Below are positions 38,880 to 45,919 of a DNA stretch of 64,000 bases, piece by piece. The position numbers and the translations under genes are program-made. The stretch comes from Planctomycetota bacterium. GTDB lineage: Bacteria > Planctomycetota > UBA8108 > UBA1146. The DNA is taken from the NCBI GenBank assembly GCA_016776905.1, contig JADHSM010000001.1, positions 180,455-244,454 on the forward strand, given 5' to 3'. The notes beneath the pieces were generated by a model. That model did no database searches, had not been told where the DNA came from, and saw only the letters and a list, made by a program, of their open reading frames with translations. Every line of letters starts with the position of its first letter. Positions within the stretch are counted from its first letter, which is position 1.

Positions 38880-40046
38880 ATGAAAGTCAAACCTGAGGGC
38901 TCTCCGGGGCTATATGTTCACGTCCCGTTCTGTCGAAGCCGATGCACATATTGTGACTTCCATGTGGCAGCCCTTCGTCCGGGGGTCGTCACCGATTATG
39001 TTTCCGCCCTGATTTTGGAGATCCAGCACCATGCCGATGCCGGATTCTCTCCCGAAACTATTTTTATCGGCGGAGGGACTCCTAGCGCTCTTTCCGTGGA
39101 AGACTGGACTCGCCTTCTTAAATGTTTGTCCGAGTCTTTTCAGTCTGGTCTCAAAGAGTGGACGATCGAGGCGAATCCTGAATCCATCGATGAGCAAAAA
39201 ATAGAGATAGCGTTGTCATTAGGAGTTGATCGTTTGAGTACAGGAGCGCAAACGTTTGTAGAGACAGGGCTCGCTTTACTGGGCCGGAGGCACGACGCTC
39301 AAAGGGTGCACGAGGTTCATGATCTGTTTCAGAAGTTAGGTGTACCTCGAACAAGCTTAGATCTCATTGTGGGATGGCCTGGGCAAGCCATCGACTCCGT
39401 AAATACTGACCTTGCGGCGGTCAAAGAGATCGATCCTGATCATATCAGTCTCTATCACCTGAGTTATGAACAAGGAACTTGGCTTCATTCGATGCGTGAG
39501 CGTGGCGGACTCAAACCAATAATGGACGACACCTGTATCGAACTCTCAAGAGCATTTCTCCAAGGGCTTCAAGAGCAAGGTTTTGAGCGATATGAAGTTT
39601 CAAATTTGTATGCAAGAGGTGGAGCCTCTCTTCACAATCTCAACTATTGGGAGCGGGGTGAATACCTCGGAGTTGGCAGCGGTGCTGCTTCGTTTATGGA
39701 GGGGTTGAGATGGAAAAATAAGCCGGACGTTCAAAAATATATCTCGGCGGGTGGTTCTCCTGAAAAGGTCTCCATTGAAACTCCAGAACTCTTGGAAGTG
39801 GTCACTGAACTGATCATGCTCGAACTGAGATTGACTCGGGGTATGAATCTGAACCGGTTCAAAACCGAGACAGGGTTGGATTTTCATGAGATTTGTGGTG
39901 AGAGTTTGCACAGTTTTGAAAAACGGGGTTTGCTCATACAGGGGGAGAATGCCATTCGGGCTTCCTCCGAAGGATTCGAGGTCCTCGATTCCGTGATCGT
40001 CAAATTTGTAGAAGACGCTGAGGAGAGGCTCAATGAGGGAACGTGA
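38880..40046 (+). CDS. hemW: Radical SAM heme chaperone HemW (coproporphyrinogen-III-oxidase-like)
   Basis: CxxxCxxC motif (FCRSRCTYCDFH) at the N-terminus and HemN-like C-terminal domain. GGAG ribosome-binding site. Confidence 0.75.
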   Translation: MKVKPEGSPGLYVHVPFCRSRCTYCDFHVAALRPGVVTDYVSALILEIQHHADAGFSPETIFIGGGTPSALSVEDWTRLLKCLSESFQSGLKEWTIEANPESIDEQKIEIALSLGVDRLSTGAQTFVETGLALLGRRHDAQRVHEVHDLFQKLGVPRTSLDLIVGWPGQAIDSVNTDLAAVKEIDPDHISLYHLSYEQGTWLHSMRERGGLKPIMDDTCIELSRAFLQGLQEQGFERYEVSNLYARGGASLHNLNYWERGEYLGVGSGAASFMEGLRWKNKPDVQKYISAGGSPEKVSIETPELLEVVTELIMLELRLTRGMNLNRFKTETGLDFHEICGESLHSFEKRGLLIQGENAIRASSEGFEVLDSVIVKFVEDAEERLNEGT

Positions 40047-40617
40047 CATTCCACAGTTGGAAGTGAGCTTGGCAATTCGGCTCCTCAGGCATCGGGGCTG
40101 GGTCTCCATTGAGATTCTTGCAGACGTCCTCAAAGAAATGGGCCCTCAAGCCGGTTTGGGCGGATTTCTAGATCTACTTCAGGTGGGATCGCCATTGCCC
40201 TTAAGTGCTGAGAGAAGCGCTCTTTTGGTGGATAGAGTTCGAAACCAAATGAGAAGTTTACTTTCTCATGGCCCGGATTCCAGAATCGACGACGGTAGAC
40301 TCGGACGGCTCGCTCTCGGTAAGGGCTGGATATCCTCTCCAATGCTGGAGTCTGCGCTTTTAGAACAAGCAAGACTTCGTCGTATGGGTTTGAGGTTTCG
40401 TTTGGGAGAAGTTTTTGTTCGCCTTGATCATTTGACGAAACGACAGGTTGAGACACTCCTGGAAGAGCAGGGGGCTTTGATCAAAACCTGTAAGAGTTGC
40501 CGAAGAGTGGAGAAATTCTCGGCCCAAACCTGTGAATGCGGAAAACCTCTATTTCCGGGTCCTACCCTAGGACCGGTCGTTACAGACCGTTATCTGATCG
40601 CTCAGACTTATTCCTGA
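40033..40617 (+). CDS. Protein with tandem MshEN-like motifs and a C-terminal zinc ribbon
   Basis: RLGRLALGKGWISSPMLESALLEQ and RLGEVFVRLDHLTKRQVETLLEEQ are two consecutive 24-aa motifs of the MshEN type (tandem RLGxxLLxxGLIxxxxLxxxLxxQ). C-terminus CKSCRRV...CECGKPL. Overlaps the hemW 3' end. Confidence 0.4.
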   Translation: MRERDIPQLEVSLAIRLLRHRGWVSIEILADVLKEMGPQAGLGGFLDLLQVGSPLPLSAERSALLVDRVRNQMRSLLSHGPDSRIDDGRLGRLALGKGWISSPMLESALLEQARLRRMGLRFRLGEVFVRLDHLTKRQVETLLEEQGALIKTCKSCRRVEKFSAQTCECGKPLFPGPTLGPVVTDRYLIAQTYS

Positions 40618-40717: not shown

Positions 40718-41332
40718 ATGAAGGACGACGATTTGCAGTCCAATCAAAATGAATCCTCTGGGGATACTGGAGCCAAGAGCTCTACCCCAGAGAGAGATTT
40801 GCCAGAAGTTGAAGCATTGCCCATAGACGACGCGGCAGCAGTGTCCGGTCTAGGCGAGGAGTTCAATGATGACGATGTCATTGTTTATCTCGATGACGTC
40901 GCTGAGATTTCTTCTGATGTGAGTGATTCCGATCTACTTTCTCACCGACCCGGTGAAGAAGACGTTCTCACTGAGTTCGAAAGATTGCCTGAAGTTCAAG
41001 TTCAATTGGTGGAGGGTCTTCCTGAAGTCTTCGATGTCGAAGAGATCACAGATCTGGTGACCGAAGAGGTTGAAGGAAACTGGACAGACATATTCTCTGA
41101 CAGAGAAGCATTGTTTGACCGGTGCAAGACGGTGGTCCTTGAAAACCAGAAAATCTTCGCAAGTGTTGCCGCGGTGTTTGTTATTGCAGCCGTAGCGCTT
41201 TGGATGCCAGGTGAGGCTTCTTCAGAGTCGGCATTGGTGAATCCTAATAGTGTCGTGTCTTCGGCTGAATCATTTGACCATTGGGTAGGTGGGGTGATTT
41301 CCGATCATCTCACTGAGATCGGAGGGGAATGA
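40718..41332 (+). CDS. Acidic hypothetical protein with a C-terminal transmembrane segment
   Basis: Asp/Glu-rich, with a transmembrane helix (IFASVAAVFVIAAVALWM). ATGA overlap with the next gene. Confidence 0.35.
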   Translation: MKDDDLQSNQNESSGDTGAKSSTPERDLPEVEALPIDDAAAVSGLGEEFNDDDVIVYLDDVAEISSDVSDSDLLSHRPGEEDVLTEFERLPEVQVQLVEGLPEVFDVEEITDLVTEEVEGNWTDIFSDREALFDRCKTVVLENQKIFASVAAVFVIAAVALWMPGEASSESALVNPNSVVSSAESFDHWVGGVISDHLTEIGGE

Positions 41333-42204
41333 TGAATAAGTTATTTCTTTGCCTACTAGCGTTCCTGTTTTTATTGACCCCTAGATTCCTATTCGCAGGA
41401 ACCATCGTTCTTAAGAACGGGCACGTTATCAATGGCAAGATCATTGCCAGTGACGAAGAGAAAGTCATCATGACTTGGGGTAATGGGCGGACGACGATCT
41501 ACCATCGTTTTATTGAGTCTGTCGTACTCAGCAAAGATGAAGAGCAGTACATTCTTCAGTACAGAAGTCCTAAAAACATTCAGGCTTCAAATGCACTGAC
41601 TGAAGAAATACAACTTCCGGATTTCGAAGAATTGCATGGAGAACCCGTTACCGATTTAGTTGAGGTTGATCAGGAACCCAGCGATTTAGTTCCAACGGAA
41701 CTCGCAGTCGATCCCGTATTGGACGACTCGAGTATTGTTTCGTCCGTGAAAAAGTTCCCAAATTTTGAACAACGAGTTTTTGCGCACCTCAGTTTTTCCA
41801 TGGAAGTTCCAGAGAATTGGTCAGTCAGCGATTCCGAGAACTCCATAAAAGTTCAATCTCCCAATGGGGGAGTGTTGATTTCTCTCGATCGATATTCTGG
41901 AGGAGAGCTCGCGGTTGATCGGGCTGCTGCGGGTTTATTGGGGAAGCTTGAGGAACATGGTTTTAAGGAAAAGCGAAATGGTTTTATTTCGCTCGTCGAT
42001 CATTTGGGCAGTGTGTGGTCGAGAGAGACTACAACGCTAAATGGTTCGCATGACTGTGTTCATGCCCTGATTCTGCCCGATTCCGATAATTCCCAAATGC
42101 TCATTTCTGTCTACAGAGACAATGGATCTGAAGAAATCAGCGAGGGATTGTTGACGACTGTGTTGTCGTCGTTGGTTCCGATTCAGGTCTCCGCGCAGAG
42201 ATAA
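41329..42204 (+). CDS. Hypothetical secreted protein with an N-terminal 'LKNGH' module
   Basis: Signal peptide, then GTIVLKNGHVINGKIIASDEEKVIMTW. This is a paralog of the N-terminal module of the 28990-30675 protein. Confidence 0.4.
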   Translation: MMNKLFLCLLAFLFLLTPRFLFAGTIVLKNGHVINGKIIASDEEKVIMTWGNGRTTIYHRFIESVVLSKDEEQYILQYRSPKNIQASNALTEEIQLPDFEELHGEPVTDLVEVDQEPSDLVPTELAVDPVLDDSSIVSSVKKFPNFEQRVFAHLSFSMEVPENWSVSDSENSIKVQSPNGGVLISLDRYSGGELAVDRAAAGLLGKLEEHGFKEKRNGFISLVDHLGSVWSRETTTLNGSHDCVHALILPDSDNSQMLISVYRDNGSEEISEGLLTTVLSSLVPIQVSAQR

Positions 42205-42229
42205 TTGAGACAAAAAAATGTAGTTTTCG

Positions 42230-42265
42230 TCGCAGGTGGCCTTTGCCGCCTGCGATTTTTTTTTG
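42230..42265 (+). terminator. Rho-independent terminator (stem tcgcaggtggc/gccgcctgcga followed by T9)
   Basis: Seen directly, 26 bp after the stop at 42204. Confidence 0.8.
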
Positions 42266-42887
42266 TCTGGAGAGAAAAAAAATGTTGAACTTCATTAAAT
42301 TTTCTCGTTAACATACTTACAGAACGAGAGAGGAACCATTTCGGAAGGGGAAATCCGGAGGTGCCTTGAACACAGAAATGAAGTCGTGGGGGAAATCTTT
42401 AGCTCACCTTTTCTTTGGGTGAGACTGTGAGTGCCCTCCGATTTTATTTTGCGAGATCTCTTTTGGTCATTTCTTCATCGACCAGCCCAGGGGAAGGGTT
42501 GTCTCGACTCCCTCATTTATTGCCCTCATCCTTTCGGCTATTCCAATTCTGGAATGGTAAGAGGAAACTTTCACCTTACCGGGCCGTGAATCGTGATCAT
42601 CCACTCTGGAAATTGAGTGCCACCCAGGTGGCGGGCAGATGATTTCATAAAATTCCATTCCAGTTTTCGAGGTAACAGTTTTCCATCCGTACACCGCGGA
42701 TGATCTAACTGCCATGGAACTTTCAAGTTGTGTCTTGCATCTATAGTCTTTTTTCACGCATACTCTTGGAGATTTCTATCGGCGAGCGGCAGGGCAGTGG
42801 TTGCCCCACTCCGTTCACCGGGCGTCCCCTCGGAGGGGGGCGGGAGCATCAGGATTGAGGGGCATGTCCCCCGATAGGAGTTGGCTC

Positions 42888-43250
42888 ATGGCCAAGAAAA
42901 AGGTAGCGCGTAAGAAAGCAGCCAAGAAAAAGGTTGCTAAGAAAAAGGTAGCTAAGAAAAAGACTGCCAAGAAGAAGGTAGCCAAGAAGAAAGTTGCCAA
43001 GAAGAAGGTAGCTAAGAAGAAGGTTGCCAAGAAGAAGGTAGCTAAGAAGAAAGTTGCCAAGAAGAAGACTGCCAAGAAGAAGGTAGCCAAGAAGAAGGTC
43101 GCCAAGAAGAAGACTGCCAAGAAGAAGGTAGCCAAGAAGAAGGTCGCCAAGAAGAAGGTCGCCAAGAAGAAGGTCGCCAAGAAGAAGACCGCCAAGAAGA
43201 AGGTCGCTAAGAAGGCAGCCAAGAGAAAGACCACGCTTAGAAAAAAGTAA
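42888..43250 (+). CDS. Histone H1-like lysine/alanine-rich basic protein (Hc1/AlgP-type repeat protein)
   Basis: [30 protein letters not shown]..., built almost entirely of (KKVAK)n and encoded by 15-bp tandem repeats. ATG 42888 with AGGAG 8 nt upstream. The track ORF is extended upstream. Confidence 0.6.
42895..43215 (+). repeat. 15-bp tandem repeat array (gccaagaagaaggta and variants, about 21 units) encoding ([10 protein letters not shown])n
   Basis: Directly visible; it creates the antisense artefact ORF 42815-43234. Confidence 0.9.
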
Positions 43251-43435
43251 GTTCGCCTTCAGGTCAAGCGAGGCCCTGGCGAAAGAGGGCTTCTCTTTCT
43301 AAGCAGAAACCTGACACCAGTCCTAAGTACAGTTATTGGGATTGATCAGTTGAACGTTTAGAAAGACGAAGTTTACAGGAGAACACCTGAAGGCGGTTAG
43401 CGTCGCCTACGTATTCTCCGGGGCTCATACGCGGA

Positions 43436-43471
43436 GGTACGGGATTCATCCCGTACCTTCGCGTTTTTTTG
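43436..43471 (+). terminator. Rho-independent terminator (stem ggtacgggat/atcccgtacc followed by a T-tract)
   Basis: Seen directly, downstream of the histone-like gene. Confidence 0.75.
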
Positions 43472-43545
43472 TGCACAGTTTCTTTATGCACAGTTTTTTA
43501 TGCACAATTTTTAAAACACAATTTTTCAAACACAGTCAAAAGCAT
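43468..43545 (+). repeat. Degenerate tandem repeats (about 14 bp, consensus RCACARTTTTTWAW, 4-5 copies) upstream of the sirtuin gene
   Basis: gtgcacagtttctttatgcacagttttttatgcacaatttttaaaacacaatttttcaaacacagtc, seen directly. Confidence 0.7.
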
Positions 43546-43665
43546 TAAAGAGAAGTGAACTGGTTTTGAGATATGTGAACGGATGTCCGTTCTTCACTCT
43601 CGAAGTTCTCATACTCTCGACATTCTTCTCTTGCCGTACCGCATTTATGAGAGGCATATCCAGTC

Positions 43666-44373
43666 ATGAACCTGATACGAGAACAGCAATTGATACTTCA
43701 ATCTGAAAAGGTCGTTGTTTTTACAGGAGCTGGAATGAGTGCCGAAAGTGGAGTGCCCACATTCCGAGGGAAGGATGGTCTGTGGCGAGGTCGGCGCGCC
43801 GAGGAGATTGCCACACCAGAGTTCTTCGCTTCTTCGCCAGAAGAGGTTTTGGAATTCTACCGCTGGCGAAGGGAATTATTGAAGCACGTCGAATTGCATC
43901 CTGGTCATGTCGCCTTGGGTGAATGGACAAAAAAAAGAGGTTCAGCGGTGAGCGTGGTGACTCAGAATGTGGATGGGCTTCATCAGAAAAGTGGTTGTCC
44001 TGAAGTGATTGAGTTGCATGGTTCTATTTGGAGTGAGCATTGTCAGCGCTGTCAAGAAACTGTTGAGGAGACTGACGCTGGTTTGTGTTCTTGTGGTGGG
44101 AGGTTTCGTCCGTCGGTGGTTTGGTTTGGGGAGTCACTCCCAGAGAAAGGGTGGTCTCGCGCCACCGATCTCATGAGCAATGCTGACCTTATACTCGTGA
44201 TTGGAACTTCAGCGGTCGTCTATCCTGCTGCGGGTCTTGTCTCTCTGGCTCTGAAGAATGGGGCCCACGTGTTGGAAGTGAACCCTGAACCCGTTTTGGA
44301 AGATTCGGCTCAAACGATTTGTGGAACAGCGGCGACGGTTCTTCCTGAACTATTGAGATCTCCACAAGCCTGA
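43666..44373 (+). CDS. cobB: NAD-dependent protein deacetylase, Sir2/CobB family
   Basis: GAGMSAESGVPTFRG NAD-binding motif, VTQNVDGLH, and a Cys4 zinc site (CQRCQE...CSCGG). Confidence 0.85.
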   Translation: MNLIREQQLILQSEKVVVFTGAGMSAESGVPTFRGKDGLWRGRRAEEIATPEFFASSPEEVLEFYRWRRELLKHVELHPGHVALGEWTKKRGSAVSVVTQNVDGLHQKSGCPEVIELHGSIWSEHCQRCQETVEETDAGLCSCGGRFRPSVVWFGESLPEKGWSRATDLMSNADLILVIGTSAVVYPAAGLVSLALKNGAHVLEVNPEPVLEDSAQTICGTAATVLPELLRSPQA

Positions 44374-44440
44374 AGGGTCCGCTCGAAGGAATGTTTCATT
44401 CGAAGTGCAGAGGCTTCAGCCACACGGTGATGTTTTCAAC

Positions 44441-44481
44441 ACAGTCATGTACTCAATACAGTCATGTACTCAATACAGTAG
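44441..44481. repeat. Tandem repeat 2.4 x 17 bp (acagtcatgtactcaat)
   Basis: Seen directly in the cobB-tRNA intergenic region. Confidence 0.8.
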
Positions 44482-44592: not shown

Positions 44593-44645
44593 GGCATTAT
44601 TCTGAACGGGCATTATTCTGAATAGGCTTTGTTTTGAACGGGCGA
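44593..44645. repeat. Tandem repeat 2 x 16 bp (gggcattattctgaa) plus a degenerate third copy
   Basis: Seen directly. Confidence 0.7.
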
Positions 44646-44715: not shown

Positions 44716-44815
44716 CAGAAGTCGTTTACCCAGATATAGAAGCCGTTTACCCAGATATAGAAGCCGTTTACCCAGATATTAAGGGGTGCCGTTTACCCAG
44801 ATATTAAGGGGTAAG
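44716..44815. repeat. Four copies of CCGTTTACCCAGATAT at 21- to 26-bp spacing, ending 12 bp from the tRNA 3' end
   Basis: agaagYcgtttacccagatat x 3, then taaggggtgccgtttacccagatat. Seen directly. Confidence 0.85.
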
Positions 44816-44826
44816 GAGTTAAAGAG

Positions 44827-44910
44827 TGCCGAGGGGGGGACTCGAACCCCCATGAGCCTAAGCTCATCAGATCCTTAGTCTGACGCGTCTGCCAGTTCCG
44901 CCACCTCGGC
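44827..44910 (-). tRNA. tRNA-Leu (type II, long variable arm); anticodon read by hand as AAG
   Basis: The reverse complement GCCGAGGTGGCGGAACTGGCAGACGCGTCAGACTAAGGATCTGATGAGCTTAGGCTCATGGGGGTTCGAGTCCCCCCCTCGGCA folds as a 7-bp acceptor stem, a D-arm resembling E. coli tRNA-Leu (GCGGAAtTGGtAGACGCG), an anticodon stem TCAGA/TCTGA with loop CTAAGGA, a 15-nt variable arm, and a T-arm GGGGG-TTCGAGT-CCCCC. No encoded CCA. Confidence 0.75.
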
Positions 44911-45001: not shown

Positions 45002-45919
45002 CTACGGCTCTGCGCCTTGGTCGATCCAGTCCTGAATCAGTTGTATTTCTGCTGTACTGAGGCAACAGAACCCTCCGATAGGCATTTGGCTTCCTGCGGC
45101 AGCAGTGGAGCAGCCTGCCGCTGTCGCGGCCTCGATATGTGTCCCTACGATCTTCCGGAAAAGCCAACTGGCCTGAGAATCAAAGGGTTCTACGAAGTCG
45201 TAGGATCCACATTCGTCGGAAGGCTGATTCACGATGGTGGCATATGAATCGTTTGTTGTTGTGTCAGCGAGATTCAATCCTCCAAAGTTGGATGGAGGAG
45301 CATGGCATACCGTGCACTGGGTATCGATGATTTGAGTGTAAATGTCTGCTGAGTAAGAAAGTGCAATCGCGCAGTTGGGAGCTGCAGAGCAGTCGCTGTC
45401 TTCACAATCAATCAGATTATCTGCATCGTTATCGATACCATCGTTGCAATTGAGCGATTCGTCACAGCTGGGATCACTGAGCAGGCAGTCTTCGTCTTCA
45501 CAATCGATGAGGCTGTCTCCGTCATCGTCGAGGCCATTCCCACAAATTTCAGGAGTTGAAGCGCAACCATTGCTGGTTGTTGGACAATCGAGCCCGTCTG
45601 CGGTGGCATCGGGTCCGCAATCGTTCGGCGCTGGGGGAGGACCTCCCGATCCAAAGAGATTGCCCAAAAGGAAGATGGGGTCACTGATATCGCTTCCACC
45701 ATCATCGTTGATATCGCAGGCATCTGGGCAGAGAGCCGGCCCGGCTCCTGAGAACAGAATGGCTAATCCGATCACGGCATCTGCAATATTTACCTGATCA
45801 TCGAGGTTGCAATCTCCTCGAGTGAAATTTTCCTGCGCCTCTAATGGGCTGACGAGGAGGGTGAAAATCAGCAATATGAAGGCTAAACGCCCTTGTAAAT
45901 GTGTTTTTGGCATCACCAA
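45002..45919 (-). CDS. Secreted protein with dockerin-like N-terminal repeat, Cys/Asp-rich repeats and a planctomycete-type cytochrome c (CxxCH) C-terminal domain
   Basis: Signal peptide. DCNLDDQVNIADAVIGL is a dockerin-type Ca-binding repeat. CGNGLDDDGDSLIDCEDEDC and CNDGIDNDADNLIDCEDSDC repeats. The C-terminal segment CTVCHAPPSNFGGLNLADTT...SQASWLFRKIVG matches the planctomycete cytochrome C domain. Confidence 0.5.
   Translation of the reverse strand: MVMPKTHLQGRLAFILLIFTLLVSPLEAQENFTRGDCNLDDQVNIADAVIGLAILFSGAGPALCPDACDINDDGGSDISDPIFLLGNLFGSGGPPPAPNDCGPDATADGLDCPTTSNGCASTPEICGNGLDDDGDSLIDCEDEDCLLSDPSCDESLNCNDGIDNDADNLIDCEDSDCSAAPNCAIALSYSADIYTQIIDTQCTVCHAPPSNFGGLNLADTTTNDSYATIVNQPSDECGSYDFVEPFDSQASWLFRKIVGTHIEAATAAGCSTAAAGSQMPIGGFCCLSTAEIQLIQDWIDQGAEP

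Follow-up and report, generated by a model that had tools for sequence, protein, structure and literature searches.

Lysine-repeat proteins and sirtuins in prokaryotes

The control of lysine-repeat nucleoid proteins by sirtuins is already known from the couple formed by HupS and CobB1. In archaea, deacetylation of a lysine by a Sir2 homologue reportedly raises the affinity of the chromatin protein Alba for DNA (Bell et al. 2002, Science); unlike the polylysine repeat described here, Alba is folded and has a single key lysine. In Streptomyces, CobB1 controls how far the lysine-repeat domain of HupS is acetylated and hence its DNA affinity, which is lowered by acetylation; this modification is reversed by a Sir2/CobB-type deacylase, which promotes compaction (PMC11229371). 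The HU protein of M. tuberculosis is both succinylated and acetylated, and the desuccinylase activity of Rv1151c relies on a YxxR motif binding the carboxylate of the acyl group (PMC13445592), a motif that the sirtuin of the present locus shares. HupS and HupB have an H1-like lysine-repeat region as does the protein described here, but as a tail on an HU fold. Furthermore, HupS–CobB1 and HupB–Rv1151c belong to another phylum, the Actinobacteria. The papers on these two systems do not describe the genes as a conserved neighbouring pair. What is new here is this conserved adjacency and a lysine-repeat protein reduced to the tail.

Other polycations resemble the protein of this locus. The chlamydial Hc2 (HctB) is also rich in lysine and alanine and built of lysine-rich pentamers, and its host, like that of the lysine-rich gene, belongs to the PVC superphylum, but the latter host, unlike that of Hc2, is not known to have a developmental cycle. 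The hctB gene is not known to be linked to a sirtuin gene. Hc2 is polymorphic in size (165-237 aa) according to its number of repeats (PMC2848022), a polymorphism found again in the lysine-rich protein (50-150 aa). AlgP and PhaF of Pseudomonas are Lys/Ala low-complexity polycations that are likewise termed histone H1-like, but their repeat, KPAA, differs from the AKKKV/T unit found here. AlgP localises to polyphosphate granules and spaces them (PMC9239181), whereas PhaF has a disordered H1-like region that binds RNA and also activates translation (PMC12818456). These precedents imply that DNA is not the sole candidate ligand of the lysine-rich protein.

The planctomycete locus

The locus lies in a window of 64 kb, which is the whole stretch of DNA that was analysed. 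It comes from a marine planctomycete and is found in many marine assemblies (TARA and similar). An earlier note reported a 120-aa lysine-repeat protein followed on the same strand by an NAD-dependent lysine deacetylase, with a spacing of about 415 bp. Both identities hold, as judged from the ORF, the repeat and the Pfam/NCBIfam scores, and the distance from the stop of the first gene to the start of the second is exactly 415 nt. The label "eukaryote-like" that was given to the pair is unnecessary since bacterial precedents exist (PMC11229371). The features of the locus are the following:

42229..42256, + strand: intrinsic terminator closing the upstream p204-p291 operon (12-bp stem, 8 GC pairs, then T8)
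42735..42764, + strand: promoter-like element TTGCAT-N18-CATACT, inferred by comparison
42766..42887, + strand: 5' leader (about 120 nt) folded into three main stem-loops, from conservation and covariation
42876-42880, + strand: conserved Shine-Dalgarno sequence AGGAG, 7 nt before the ATG
42888..43250, + strand: CDS of the lysine-repeat protein, 120 aa, (AKKKV/T)n, without globular domain
42921..43214, + strand: array of 15-nt tandem repeats (19.6 copies) within the lysine-rich CDS, from a repeat search
43251..43428, + strand: conserved structured 3' UTR, long-range stem GCCUUCAGG/CCUGAAGGC plus internal hairpin around AAGUACAGUUAUUGGGA
43429..43471, + strand: strong intrinsic terminator of the lysine-rich gene (16-bp stem 43429-43464, 10 GC pairs, then T7)
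43465..43534, + strand: 14-nt tandem repeats, TTTTTTATGCACAG-like, directly 3' of the terminator
43666..44373, + strand: class III sirtuin, NAD-dependent protein deacylase, CobB/SIRT5/Sir2-Af1-like, 235 aa, from profiles and alignment

The lysine-rich gene and its product

The product of the first gene has 68 Lys (57% of its residues, which makes it rich in lysine but not "almost pure lysine" as initially proposed), 25 Ala, 16 Val and 6 Thr, arranged in about 23 A-K-K-K-V/T units with a C-terminal end RKK, for a mass of 13.4 kDa and a pI of about 12. The sequence is of low complexity, several frames are open, some of them on the opposite strand, and the predicted protein has no significant family membership; the array could then be a non-coding AAG-rich DNA repeat from which no protein is made. 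This is very improbable. The ORF is a real gene because the Shine-Dalgarno sequence, the start (ATG or GTG, at the same position) and the stop are kept in all relatives, because position 3 of the codons varies 3-4 times more than positions 1 and 2 (variability of the repeat unit of 0.07/0.10/0.29 at positions 1/2/3) and because lysine codons are biased in the direction opposite to that of the rest of the window (AAG:AAA of 60:8 vs 145:215 in 13 other window genes). Furthermore, all lineages have repeat units whose lengths are divisible by 3 (12 or 15 nt), which also speaks against a non-coding repeat. The copy number of the array varies between strains and lineages, leading to orthologues of 50-150 aa, lengths that are partly assembly-dependent since several scaffolds carry N gaps inside the array.

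The protein had been assigned to the Hc1/AlgP/histone H1 type. The resemblance in composition stands but the family assignment does not: the best Pfam match, HC2 (PF07382), scores 36.5 for a cut-off of 40, and two NCBIfam H1-like models remain far below theirs, namely NF038052 (Hc2; 17.2 against 135) and NF038053 (Burkholderia-type histone H1-like DNA-binding protein; 22.9 bits vs 80). The likeness to Hc2 or histone H1 is compositional and homology cannot be claimed. No HU/IHF fold (PF00216) was found N-terminal to the lysine repeats, the whole protein being repeat, which sets it apart from the HupS/HupB type. Homology searches returned only compositional matches, i.e., domains of the SWIB, HU, RHH or phasin-like type that carry a lysine tail, and among 88 such matches none fuses a Sir2 domain to a lysine-rich tail. 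As the protein search matches only composition, orthology was defined by leader, position and synteny.

Promoter, leader, 3' UTR and terminators

The terminator of the p204-p291 operon marks the 5' limit of the lysine-rich transcription unit. Between this terminator and the gene, the element TTGCAT-N18-CATACT is the sole match in the 64-kb window, for 0.01 expected by chance. Both hexamers are kept in lineages L009, L011 and L012 with a spacer of variable sequence, and they read TTGCGT...CATACT in L019 and L020. A sigma-70 promoter scan found no + strand site upstream of the lysine-rich gene or of the sirtuin. A minus-strand ORF called in the public MAG at 42467..42757 was taken to be spurious since it is not conserved in relatives.

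The nucleotide identity of promoter and leader reaches 81-85% in lineages whose neighbouring proteins are 40-67% identical. In the leader consensus structure, built from eight sequences, 93.9% of cells are paired, and 7 compensatory pairs were counted vs 2.7 +/- 1.1 in shuffles and 1-4 in slid controls. The 3' UTR shows 13 compensatory pairs vs 6.7 +/- 1.8 in shuffles and 3-9 in slid controls, and its motif was found again in L025. Rfam, searched with a permissive E-value, gave nothing credible for either region. A search of metagenomes with the invariant leader motif recovered four loci only, and the motif had no match in a viral collection. Prediction from the window sequence proposed that a long-range stem pairing GAUUUCUAUCGG with CCGAUAGGAGUU sequesters the Shine-Dalgarno sequence; this was rejected as a general mechanism because the stem is lost in L019/L020 and absent from the eight-sequence consensus. 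The fold of the single sequence, too, is no more stable than shuffles (z = -0.5). The neighbouring proteins are less conserved than the promoter, the leader of about 120 nt and the 3' UTR (about 200 nt), and expression of the lysine-rich gene is therefore probably tightly controlled. The 5' leader and the 3' UTR are candidate new cis-regulatory RNAs, few of which are known in the phylum Planctomycetes.

The terminator that the earlier note placed in the intergenic space is indeed there. Equivalent hairpins (dG of -26 to -30 kcal/mol) followed by a T-run occur 205-230 nt past the stop in L007, L009, L011, L014 and L020, with stem sequences that differ between these lineages, and a strong terminator separates the lysine-rich gene from the sirtuin in every lineage examined. 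With a terminator between them and no shared promoter, the two genes are probably not an operon, although some read-through may occur. As for the repeat-containing promoter region proposed for the sirtuin, the 14-nt repeats exist (other lineages have different repeats, made of a T-run plus 7-8 nt, at the same place after the terminator), and a search of the spacer gave no sigma-70-like promoter on the + strand, so that the promoter stays putative.

The sirtuin

The protein encoded by the second gene scores above the cut-offs of Pfam SIR2 (PF02146; 152.9 bits for 24) and of NCBIfam NF001753, "NAD-dependent protein deacylase" (259.6 bits for 243), and below that of the CobB equivalog NF040867 (224.9 bits for 320). 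It is similar over its full length to Sir2-Af1, SIRT5 and E. coli CobB (E 2e-51 to 1e-44), its best solved relatives being A. fulgidus Sir2-Af1 (4twi, E 2e-51) and human SIRT5 (E ~1e-46). It shares with these three enzymes the GAGxS NAD-binding motif, the catalytic His, the Cys4 zinc site and the YxxR pocket, although its zinc module is shorter. The corresponding residues (G21-A-G-M-S25, the catalytic H118 in LHGS, the zinc ligands C126/C129/C141/C143) all align with Sir2-Af1. In the same way, Y65-R-W-R68 aligns with Y-A-W-R of Sir2-Af1, i.e., the YxxR pocket for acidic acyl groups, and this Tyr/Arg pocket is predicted to allow both desuccinylation and deacetylation. The enzyme is a genuine class III sirtuin and an ordinary one, as none of its features sets it apart from the general CobB type.

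Conservation of the gene pair and its possible meanings

The earlier note made its proposal depend on the pair being syntenic in at least some relative, and this is the case: the lysine-rich gene and the sirtuin gene are adjacent in 9/9 sampled lineages whose sirtuin is 53-63% identical (P0001, P0004, P0005, P0006, P0007, P0012, P0013, P0016 and L019), and the pair is absent at the four nearest outgroup sirtuins (4/4; 49-51% identical). A genome-contig search with the single sirtuin sequence gave at least one near-identical locus (L007) among the matches listed. The pair sits in a larger conserved block of four genes, p204-p291-KKK-Sir2, where KKK is the lysine-rich gene; loci of the L014/L021/L025 type have other flanks on both sides but keep p291-KKK-Sir2. 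The conserved upstream p204 is a membrane-anchored polyacidic protein with a net charge of -33. The window also encodes a DUF1559/N-methyl protein, as befits a member of the Planctomycetota.

Most paired sirtuins group in one clade of the NJ tree, and the nine lineages are therefore best counted as one evolutionary event. The adjacency is best read as a single origin followed by retention in a family- or order-level clade of marine Planctomycetia. Synteny provides weak evidence for function, as a single clade has the pair, which lies inside a larger block. Furthermore, the closest outgroup sirtuin (P0018, 50% identical) has the same downstream PKD gene, with a lipoprotein gene upstream where the lysine-rich gene would be; at this locus the sirtuin therefore works in its absence.

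These data could mean that the adjacency is a historical accident maintained by phylogenetic inertia, without any specific link, and that the main targets of the lysine-rich protein are RNA, ribosomes or polyphosphate and not the nucleoid. The outgroups that carry the sirtuin without the lysine-rich gene, the larger block, the grouping of paired sirtuins, the fusion of lysine-repeat regions to many unrelated domains (SWIB, HU, RHH, phasin-like) and the ligands of AlgP (PMC9239181) and PhaF (PMC12818456) are in line with this. We nevertheless regard it as rather improbable: a broad-specificity deacylase is expected to act on any abundant acylated protein with 68 lysines, and the adjacency has outlived rearrangements on both sides.

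At the other extreme, the lysine-rich protein could be the main substrate of the sirtuin in a co-regulated module whose adjacency is selected, the 3' UTR and terminator constituting an attenuator with conditional read-through. Read-through from the lysine-rich promoter would tie the "eraser" to its substrate and to the NAD+/metabolic state. The pair is kept in 9/9 clade members though the window-type and L014-type loci have few of the surrounding adjacencies in common, and a structured, conserved RNA with a terminator behind it, 5' of a gene, is how attenuators are classically laid out. In addition, the sirtuin ATG of L009/L012 comes only about 50 nt after the T-run of the terminator, therefore leaving little room for an independent sirtuin promoter, and the window spacer gave no sigma-70-like promoter. 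The latter point means little since planctomycete promoters are poorly described. The terminators are also very strong (dG of -26 to -30 kcal/mol, T5-T9), a conserved antiterminator pairing is not established, the spacers between terminator and sirtuin cannot be aligned across lineages and the nine lineages are best counted as one event. Such a module is thus unlikely. More doubtful still is its fullest version, a minimal hard-wired "histone-tail plus eraser" module combining charge-proportional nucleoid compaction, acylation by acetyl-phosphate and acyl-CoA, reset by the deacylase, a read-through-gated sirtuin and p204 as a tether or chaperone.

The reading that we prefer, with middling confidence, is that of two adjacent, separately terminated units, the lysine-rich polycation being probably one sirtuin substrate among many and not a partner in a dedicated module. 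Unit 1 would be a monocistronic gene whose product is a tail-only, intrinsically disordered polycation with a charge of about +70. By analogy with chlamydial Hc2, the C-terminal domain of histone H1 and the lysine-repeat tails of HupS/HupB, this protein most likely coats polyanions, above all DNA, although similar lysine-repeat regions bind polyphosphate or RNA, as seen for AlgP and PhaF. Unit 2 is the ordinary sirtuin. The 68 exposed lysines are an obvious target for acetylation and succinylation, which would be largely non-enzymatic, and each acyl group would remove or reverse one positive charge. The adjoining NAD-dependent deacylase could then restore the charge and hence the affinity for polyanions.

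The sequence data thus establish the structure and coding status of the genes, their conservation, the terminators, the class of the sirtuin and the pattern of synteny, while polyanion binding, acylation, its removal by this sirtuin and any regulatory role are inferred. A functional coupling of the two proteins is plausible. Against it stand the 16-bp terminator that parts the two genes, which share no promoter, the ordinary nature of the sirtuin, the P0018 locus and the lack of any Sir2 fusion among the 88 compositional matches. Likewise, no acetyltransferase (GNAT) gene was detected among the ORFs scanned, which cover 22-63 kb of the window.

Significance for planctomycete biology

If the coupling is false, the locus consists of a new H1-like low-complexity protein adjoining a housekeeping CobB-type enzyme. 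If it is true, this would be the first bacterial polycationic chromatin-type protein kept with its own deacylase as a gene pair. The 13-kDa repeat protein and the 26-kDa sirtuin would then provide a very simple, recombinantly tractable system for acylation-tuned polyanion binding, and the pair could suggest a candidate factor for the condensation of the nucleoid in Planctomycetes.

The lysine-rich gene and its product

The window belongs to a marine MAG that bears the annotation Planctomycetia bacterium, and carries a lysine-repeat ORF followed on the same strand by a gene for a Sir2-family deacylase. This succession, first described in the earlier note, was borne out, the lysine-rich stop and the sirtuin start being separated by exactly 415 nt. 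The features concerned are the following.

Features of the lysine-rich gene, the sirtuin gene and the DNA around them (window positions)
42229-42256, + strand: terminator ending the upstream operon
42735-42764, + strand: promoter-like TTGCAT-N18-CATACT, sole occurrence in the window; hexamers conserved, spacer variable
42766-42887, + strand: structured 5' leader of ~120 nt, three main stem-loops
42888..43250, + strand: lysine-repeat protein ORF, 120 codons, about 21-23 A-K-K-K-V/T units
43251-43428, + strand: conserved structured 3' UTR of ~180 nt after the lysine-rich stop, in which a hairpin around AAGUACAGUUAUUGGGA accompanies a long-range stem
43429-43464, + strand: strong terminator-like hairpin closing the 3' UTR, 16-bp stem, then T7
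43666..44373, + strand: sirtuin, 235 aa, Pfam SIR2 152.9 bits

The lysine-rich ORF is a 15-nt tandem repeat (19.6 copies) encoding a 13.4-kDa protein of pI ~12, with 68 Lys (57%), 25 Ala, 16 Val and 6 Thr. That it might not be a gene is extremely improbable, and on four lines of sequence evidence it is a genuine one. An AGGAG Shine-Dalgarno motif lies 7 nt 5' of the start, at the same position in every relative, and the start codon is ATG (GTG in the homologous locus L014). All orthologues retain the reading frame and the stop despite differing units (KKKVA, KRKTA, KKKA), which measure 12 or 15 nt without exception. Among the 23 repeat units of the window ORF, variability is 0.07, 0.10 and 0.29 at codon positions 1, 2 and 3. 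Lastly, AAG:AAA among the Lys codons is 60:8, versus 145:215 in 13 other window genes; this preference keeps long A-runs out of the gene, and A-runs cause ribosome slippage. ORFs on the opposite strand and in shifted frames across the gene were discarded as shadows of its repeat.

The length of the protein varies from 50 to 150 aa among strains and lineages through repeat number, although part of this variation may be artefactual because several scaffolds have N gaps in the repeat array. Repeat number varies likewise in the chlamydial Hc2 (PMC2848022). A sediment contig of 1.7x coverage (L016 1-1754) is common to the window over 42121-43010; its lysine-repeat ORF is truncated (39 aa) and has its own terminator, and its flanks are unrelated on both sides. 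Either the strain is rearranged here or the contig is an assembly chimera.

Membership of the histone-H1 type, which had been proposed for the lysine-rich protein, was not upheld. HC2 is its sole Pfam match (36.5 bits, below the cut-off of 40), it falls far under the cut-offs of the NCBIfam H1-like models, and a search of 5.8 billion proteins gave compositional matches only, namely lysine-repeat tails on SWIB, HU, RHH or phasin-like domains. It would act in the manner of an H1/Hc2-type polycation but is not assignable to those families; it is a tail without a globular domain. The lysine-repeat regions of Hc2 and HupS bind DNA (PMC2848022, PMC11229371), that of AlgP binds polyphosphate granules (PMC9239181) and that of PhaF binds RNA (PMC12818456). 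By analogy, DNA would be the likeliest ligand of the lysine-rich protein, yet not the sole possible one.

Transcription of the lysine-rich gene and the sirtuin gene

The terminator of the upstream operon is followed by a non-conserved spacer of ~480 nt. A 96-aa ORF (42467-42757, - strand) called in the public MAG annotation (L001 1759-2049) is kept in no relative and is probably spurious. From ~42725 onward, nucleotide identity among lineages is 81-85%, whereas the neighbouring proteins there are only 40-67% identical. The leader consensus structure has 93.9% of its cells paired, and compensatory changes occur at 7 pairs, where shuffles gave 2.7 +/- 1.1 and slid controls 1-4; for the 3' UTR, 13 pairs were found versus 6.7 +/- 1.8 in shuffles. 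An equivalent terminator (dG -26 to -30 kcal/mol), whose stem sequence differs, occurs 205-230 nt past the lysine-rich stop in five relatives (L007, L009, L011, L014, L020). An Rfam search with the leader and the 3' UTR returned no family for either. The conserved promoter-like element, leader, 3' UTR and terminator suggest that the gene is an independent, heavily constrained transcription unit, and this constraint argues for an expressed, tightly regulated product. Both UTRs (42766-42887, 43251-43471), whose nucleotide conservation (81-85%) exceeds the amino-acid conservation of the adjoining proteins, are candidate new cis-regulatory RNAs.

The earlier note was also right in placing a terminator and repeats in the spacer between the two genes, 14-nt tandem repeats lying directly 3' of the hairpin (43465-43534). 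Short tandem repeats crowd both sirtuin-flanking spacers (43465-43534, 44436-44479, 44593-44643, 44717-44812), with units of 14, 17, 16 and 21-25 nt, many sharing CACAG(T); in other lineages the stretch immediately past the terminator is taken up by different repeats, each a T-run plus 7-8 nt. An imperfect inverted repeat, GTGAACGGA-TG-TCCGTTCTTCAC, at 43575-43597, ~70 nt 5' of the sirtuin start, is retained in the near-identical locus L007 and could serve as an operator or form a hairpin in the 5' UTR.

In the L009 (5950-6001) and L012 lineages, only ~50 nt separate the terminator T-run from the sirtuin ATG, and expression of the sirtuin there may require either read-through of the terminator or a promoter overlapping it. 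No recognisable promoter was found upstream of the window sirtuin. Both points lend some support to a dedicated, co-regulated module, in which the structured 3' UTR and terminator would be an attenuator. A conserved antiterminator could not be established. Such a module is regarded as doubtful.

Conservation of the pair

Genomic contexts of sirtuin homologues were sampled at falling identity to the window sirtuin, the pair being scored as present when a lysine-repeat ORF lay directly upstream of the sirtuin on the same strand.

Sirtuin homologues, identity to the window sirtuin and presence of the pair
Same-species contigs: ~100%, present
P0004: 58%, present
P0005: 60%, present
P0006: 59%, present
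P0007: 53%, present
P0012: 54%, present
P0013: 53%, present
P0016: 54%, present
L019 (located via the leader motif): 63% (partial match of 52 aa), present
P0018: 50%, absent
P0021: 51%, absent
P0022: 49%, absent
P0032: 50%, absent

The pair is thus found in nine lineages. Judging from orthologue identities to the window (HemN 63-67%, aminotransferase 63-84%, p291 30-42%), the clade that has it is deep. In a rough NJ tree, the paired sirtuins fall mostly into one clade, P0016 being placed apart, so that a single origin followed by retention best accounts for the nine lineages.

Loci of the window type have the order PatA_N, HemN, MshEN-like, p204, p291, lysine-rich gene, Sir2, p305, aminotransferase, and so on. 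Those of the L014/L021/L025 type share with it only the block (p204-like)-p291-lysine-rich gene-Sir2, flanked by an ECF sigma/anti-sigma pair upstream and by PKD and RND efflux genes downstream; the adjacency therefore outlasted rearrangements on both sides. Conversely, the P0018 locus retains Sir2-PKD with a lipoprotein gene where the lysine-rich gene would be, so the sirtuin does not need this partner there. A purely coincidental adjacency, with a ligand other than DNA, is considered improbable.

Within the four-gene block, p204 (40718-41332, + strand) has a 145-aa N-terminal region of net charge -33, then a transmembrane helix, and p291 (41329-42204, + strand) a signal peptide and a Leptospira-type N-terminal domain. 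A membrane-anchored polyacid adjoining a polycation invites the idea of a link, which is purely speculative. The small protein encoded at 40033-40617 (+ strand), conserved in window-type loci, resembles the MshE-related cyclic-di-GMP-binding motif at a sub-threshold 32.7 bits (cut-off 38) and has a C-terminal Cys-rich segment; its gene overlaps the end of the HemN-like gene. Downstream of the sirtuin, 45002-45919 (- strand) encodes an acidic double-disulfide-repeat protein whose CxxCH C-terminal domain reappears in the rearranged loci (L014 9011-9253, L021 3560-3802), where it ends the PKD protein encoded after the sirtuin. At 44826-44910 (- strand), convergent with the sirtuin gene, is a tRNA-Leu whose anticodon, AAG, has A at wobble position 34; its position is conserved in L001, L007, L009, L011, L012 and L020. 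An A34 is unusual for bacterial leucine tRNAs.

The sirtuin and its possible relation to the polycation

The sirtuin exceeds the NCBIfam "NAD-dependent protein deacylase" cut-off (259.6 versus 243) and stays below that of the CobB equivalog; it is otherwise unremarkable. Its closest solved structures are A. fulgidus Sir2-Af1 (E 2e-51), human SIRT5 and E. coli CobB. It has GAGxS, the catalytic His118, four zinc cysteines and YxxR (Tyr65/Arg68), the motif underlying succinyl-lysine recognition in SIRT5 and M. tuberculosis Rv1151c (PMC13445592). It is thus a class III deacylase, probably with both deacetylase and desuccinylase activity.

The preferred reading, given about an even chance of being right, is that of two separate transcription units whose adjacency was inherited in one clade, the polycation being one of many substrates of the sirtuin. 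The polycation would bind the nucleoid or other polyanions and, with its 68 lysines, would be especially prone to acetylation and succinylation, for the most part non-enzymatic. The adjoining sirtuin would strip the acyl groups and so restore charge and affinity. No acetyltransferase gene was found among the ORFs scanned between window positions 22 and 63 kb. This relation agrees with that demonstrated for HupS-CobB1 in Streptomyces (PMC11229371).

The interpretation of the pair as a reversible acetylation system is partly supported. The pair passes the synteny check suggested in the earlier note, but synteny confined to a single clade, with a strong terminator between the genes, does not count as evidence that acetylation works as a switch here. 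Calling it "eukaryote-like" adds nothing, sirtuin control of lysine-repeat nucleoid proteins being established in Actinobacteria. The archaeal nucleoid protein Alba is under sirtuin control as well, and the concept is thus not new. A literature search found no published description of a lysine-repeat gene/sirtuin pairing. What is new is the free-standing lysine-repeat protein in Planctomycetia, the conserved adjacency of its gene to a class III sirtuin gene in a family- or order-level clade, and two strongly conserved structured UTRs without an Rfam family.
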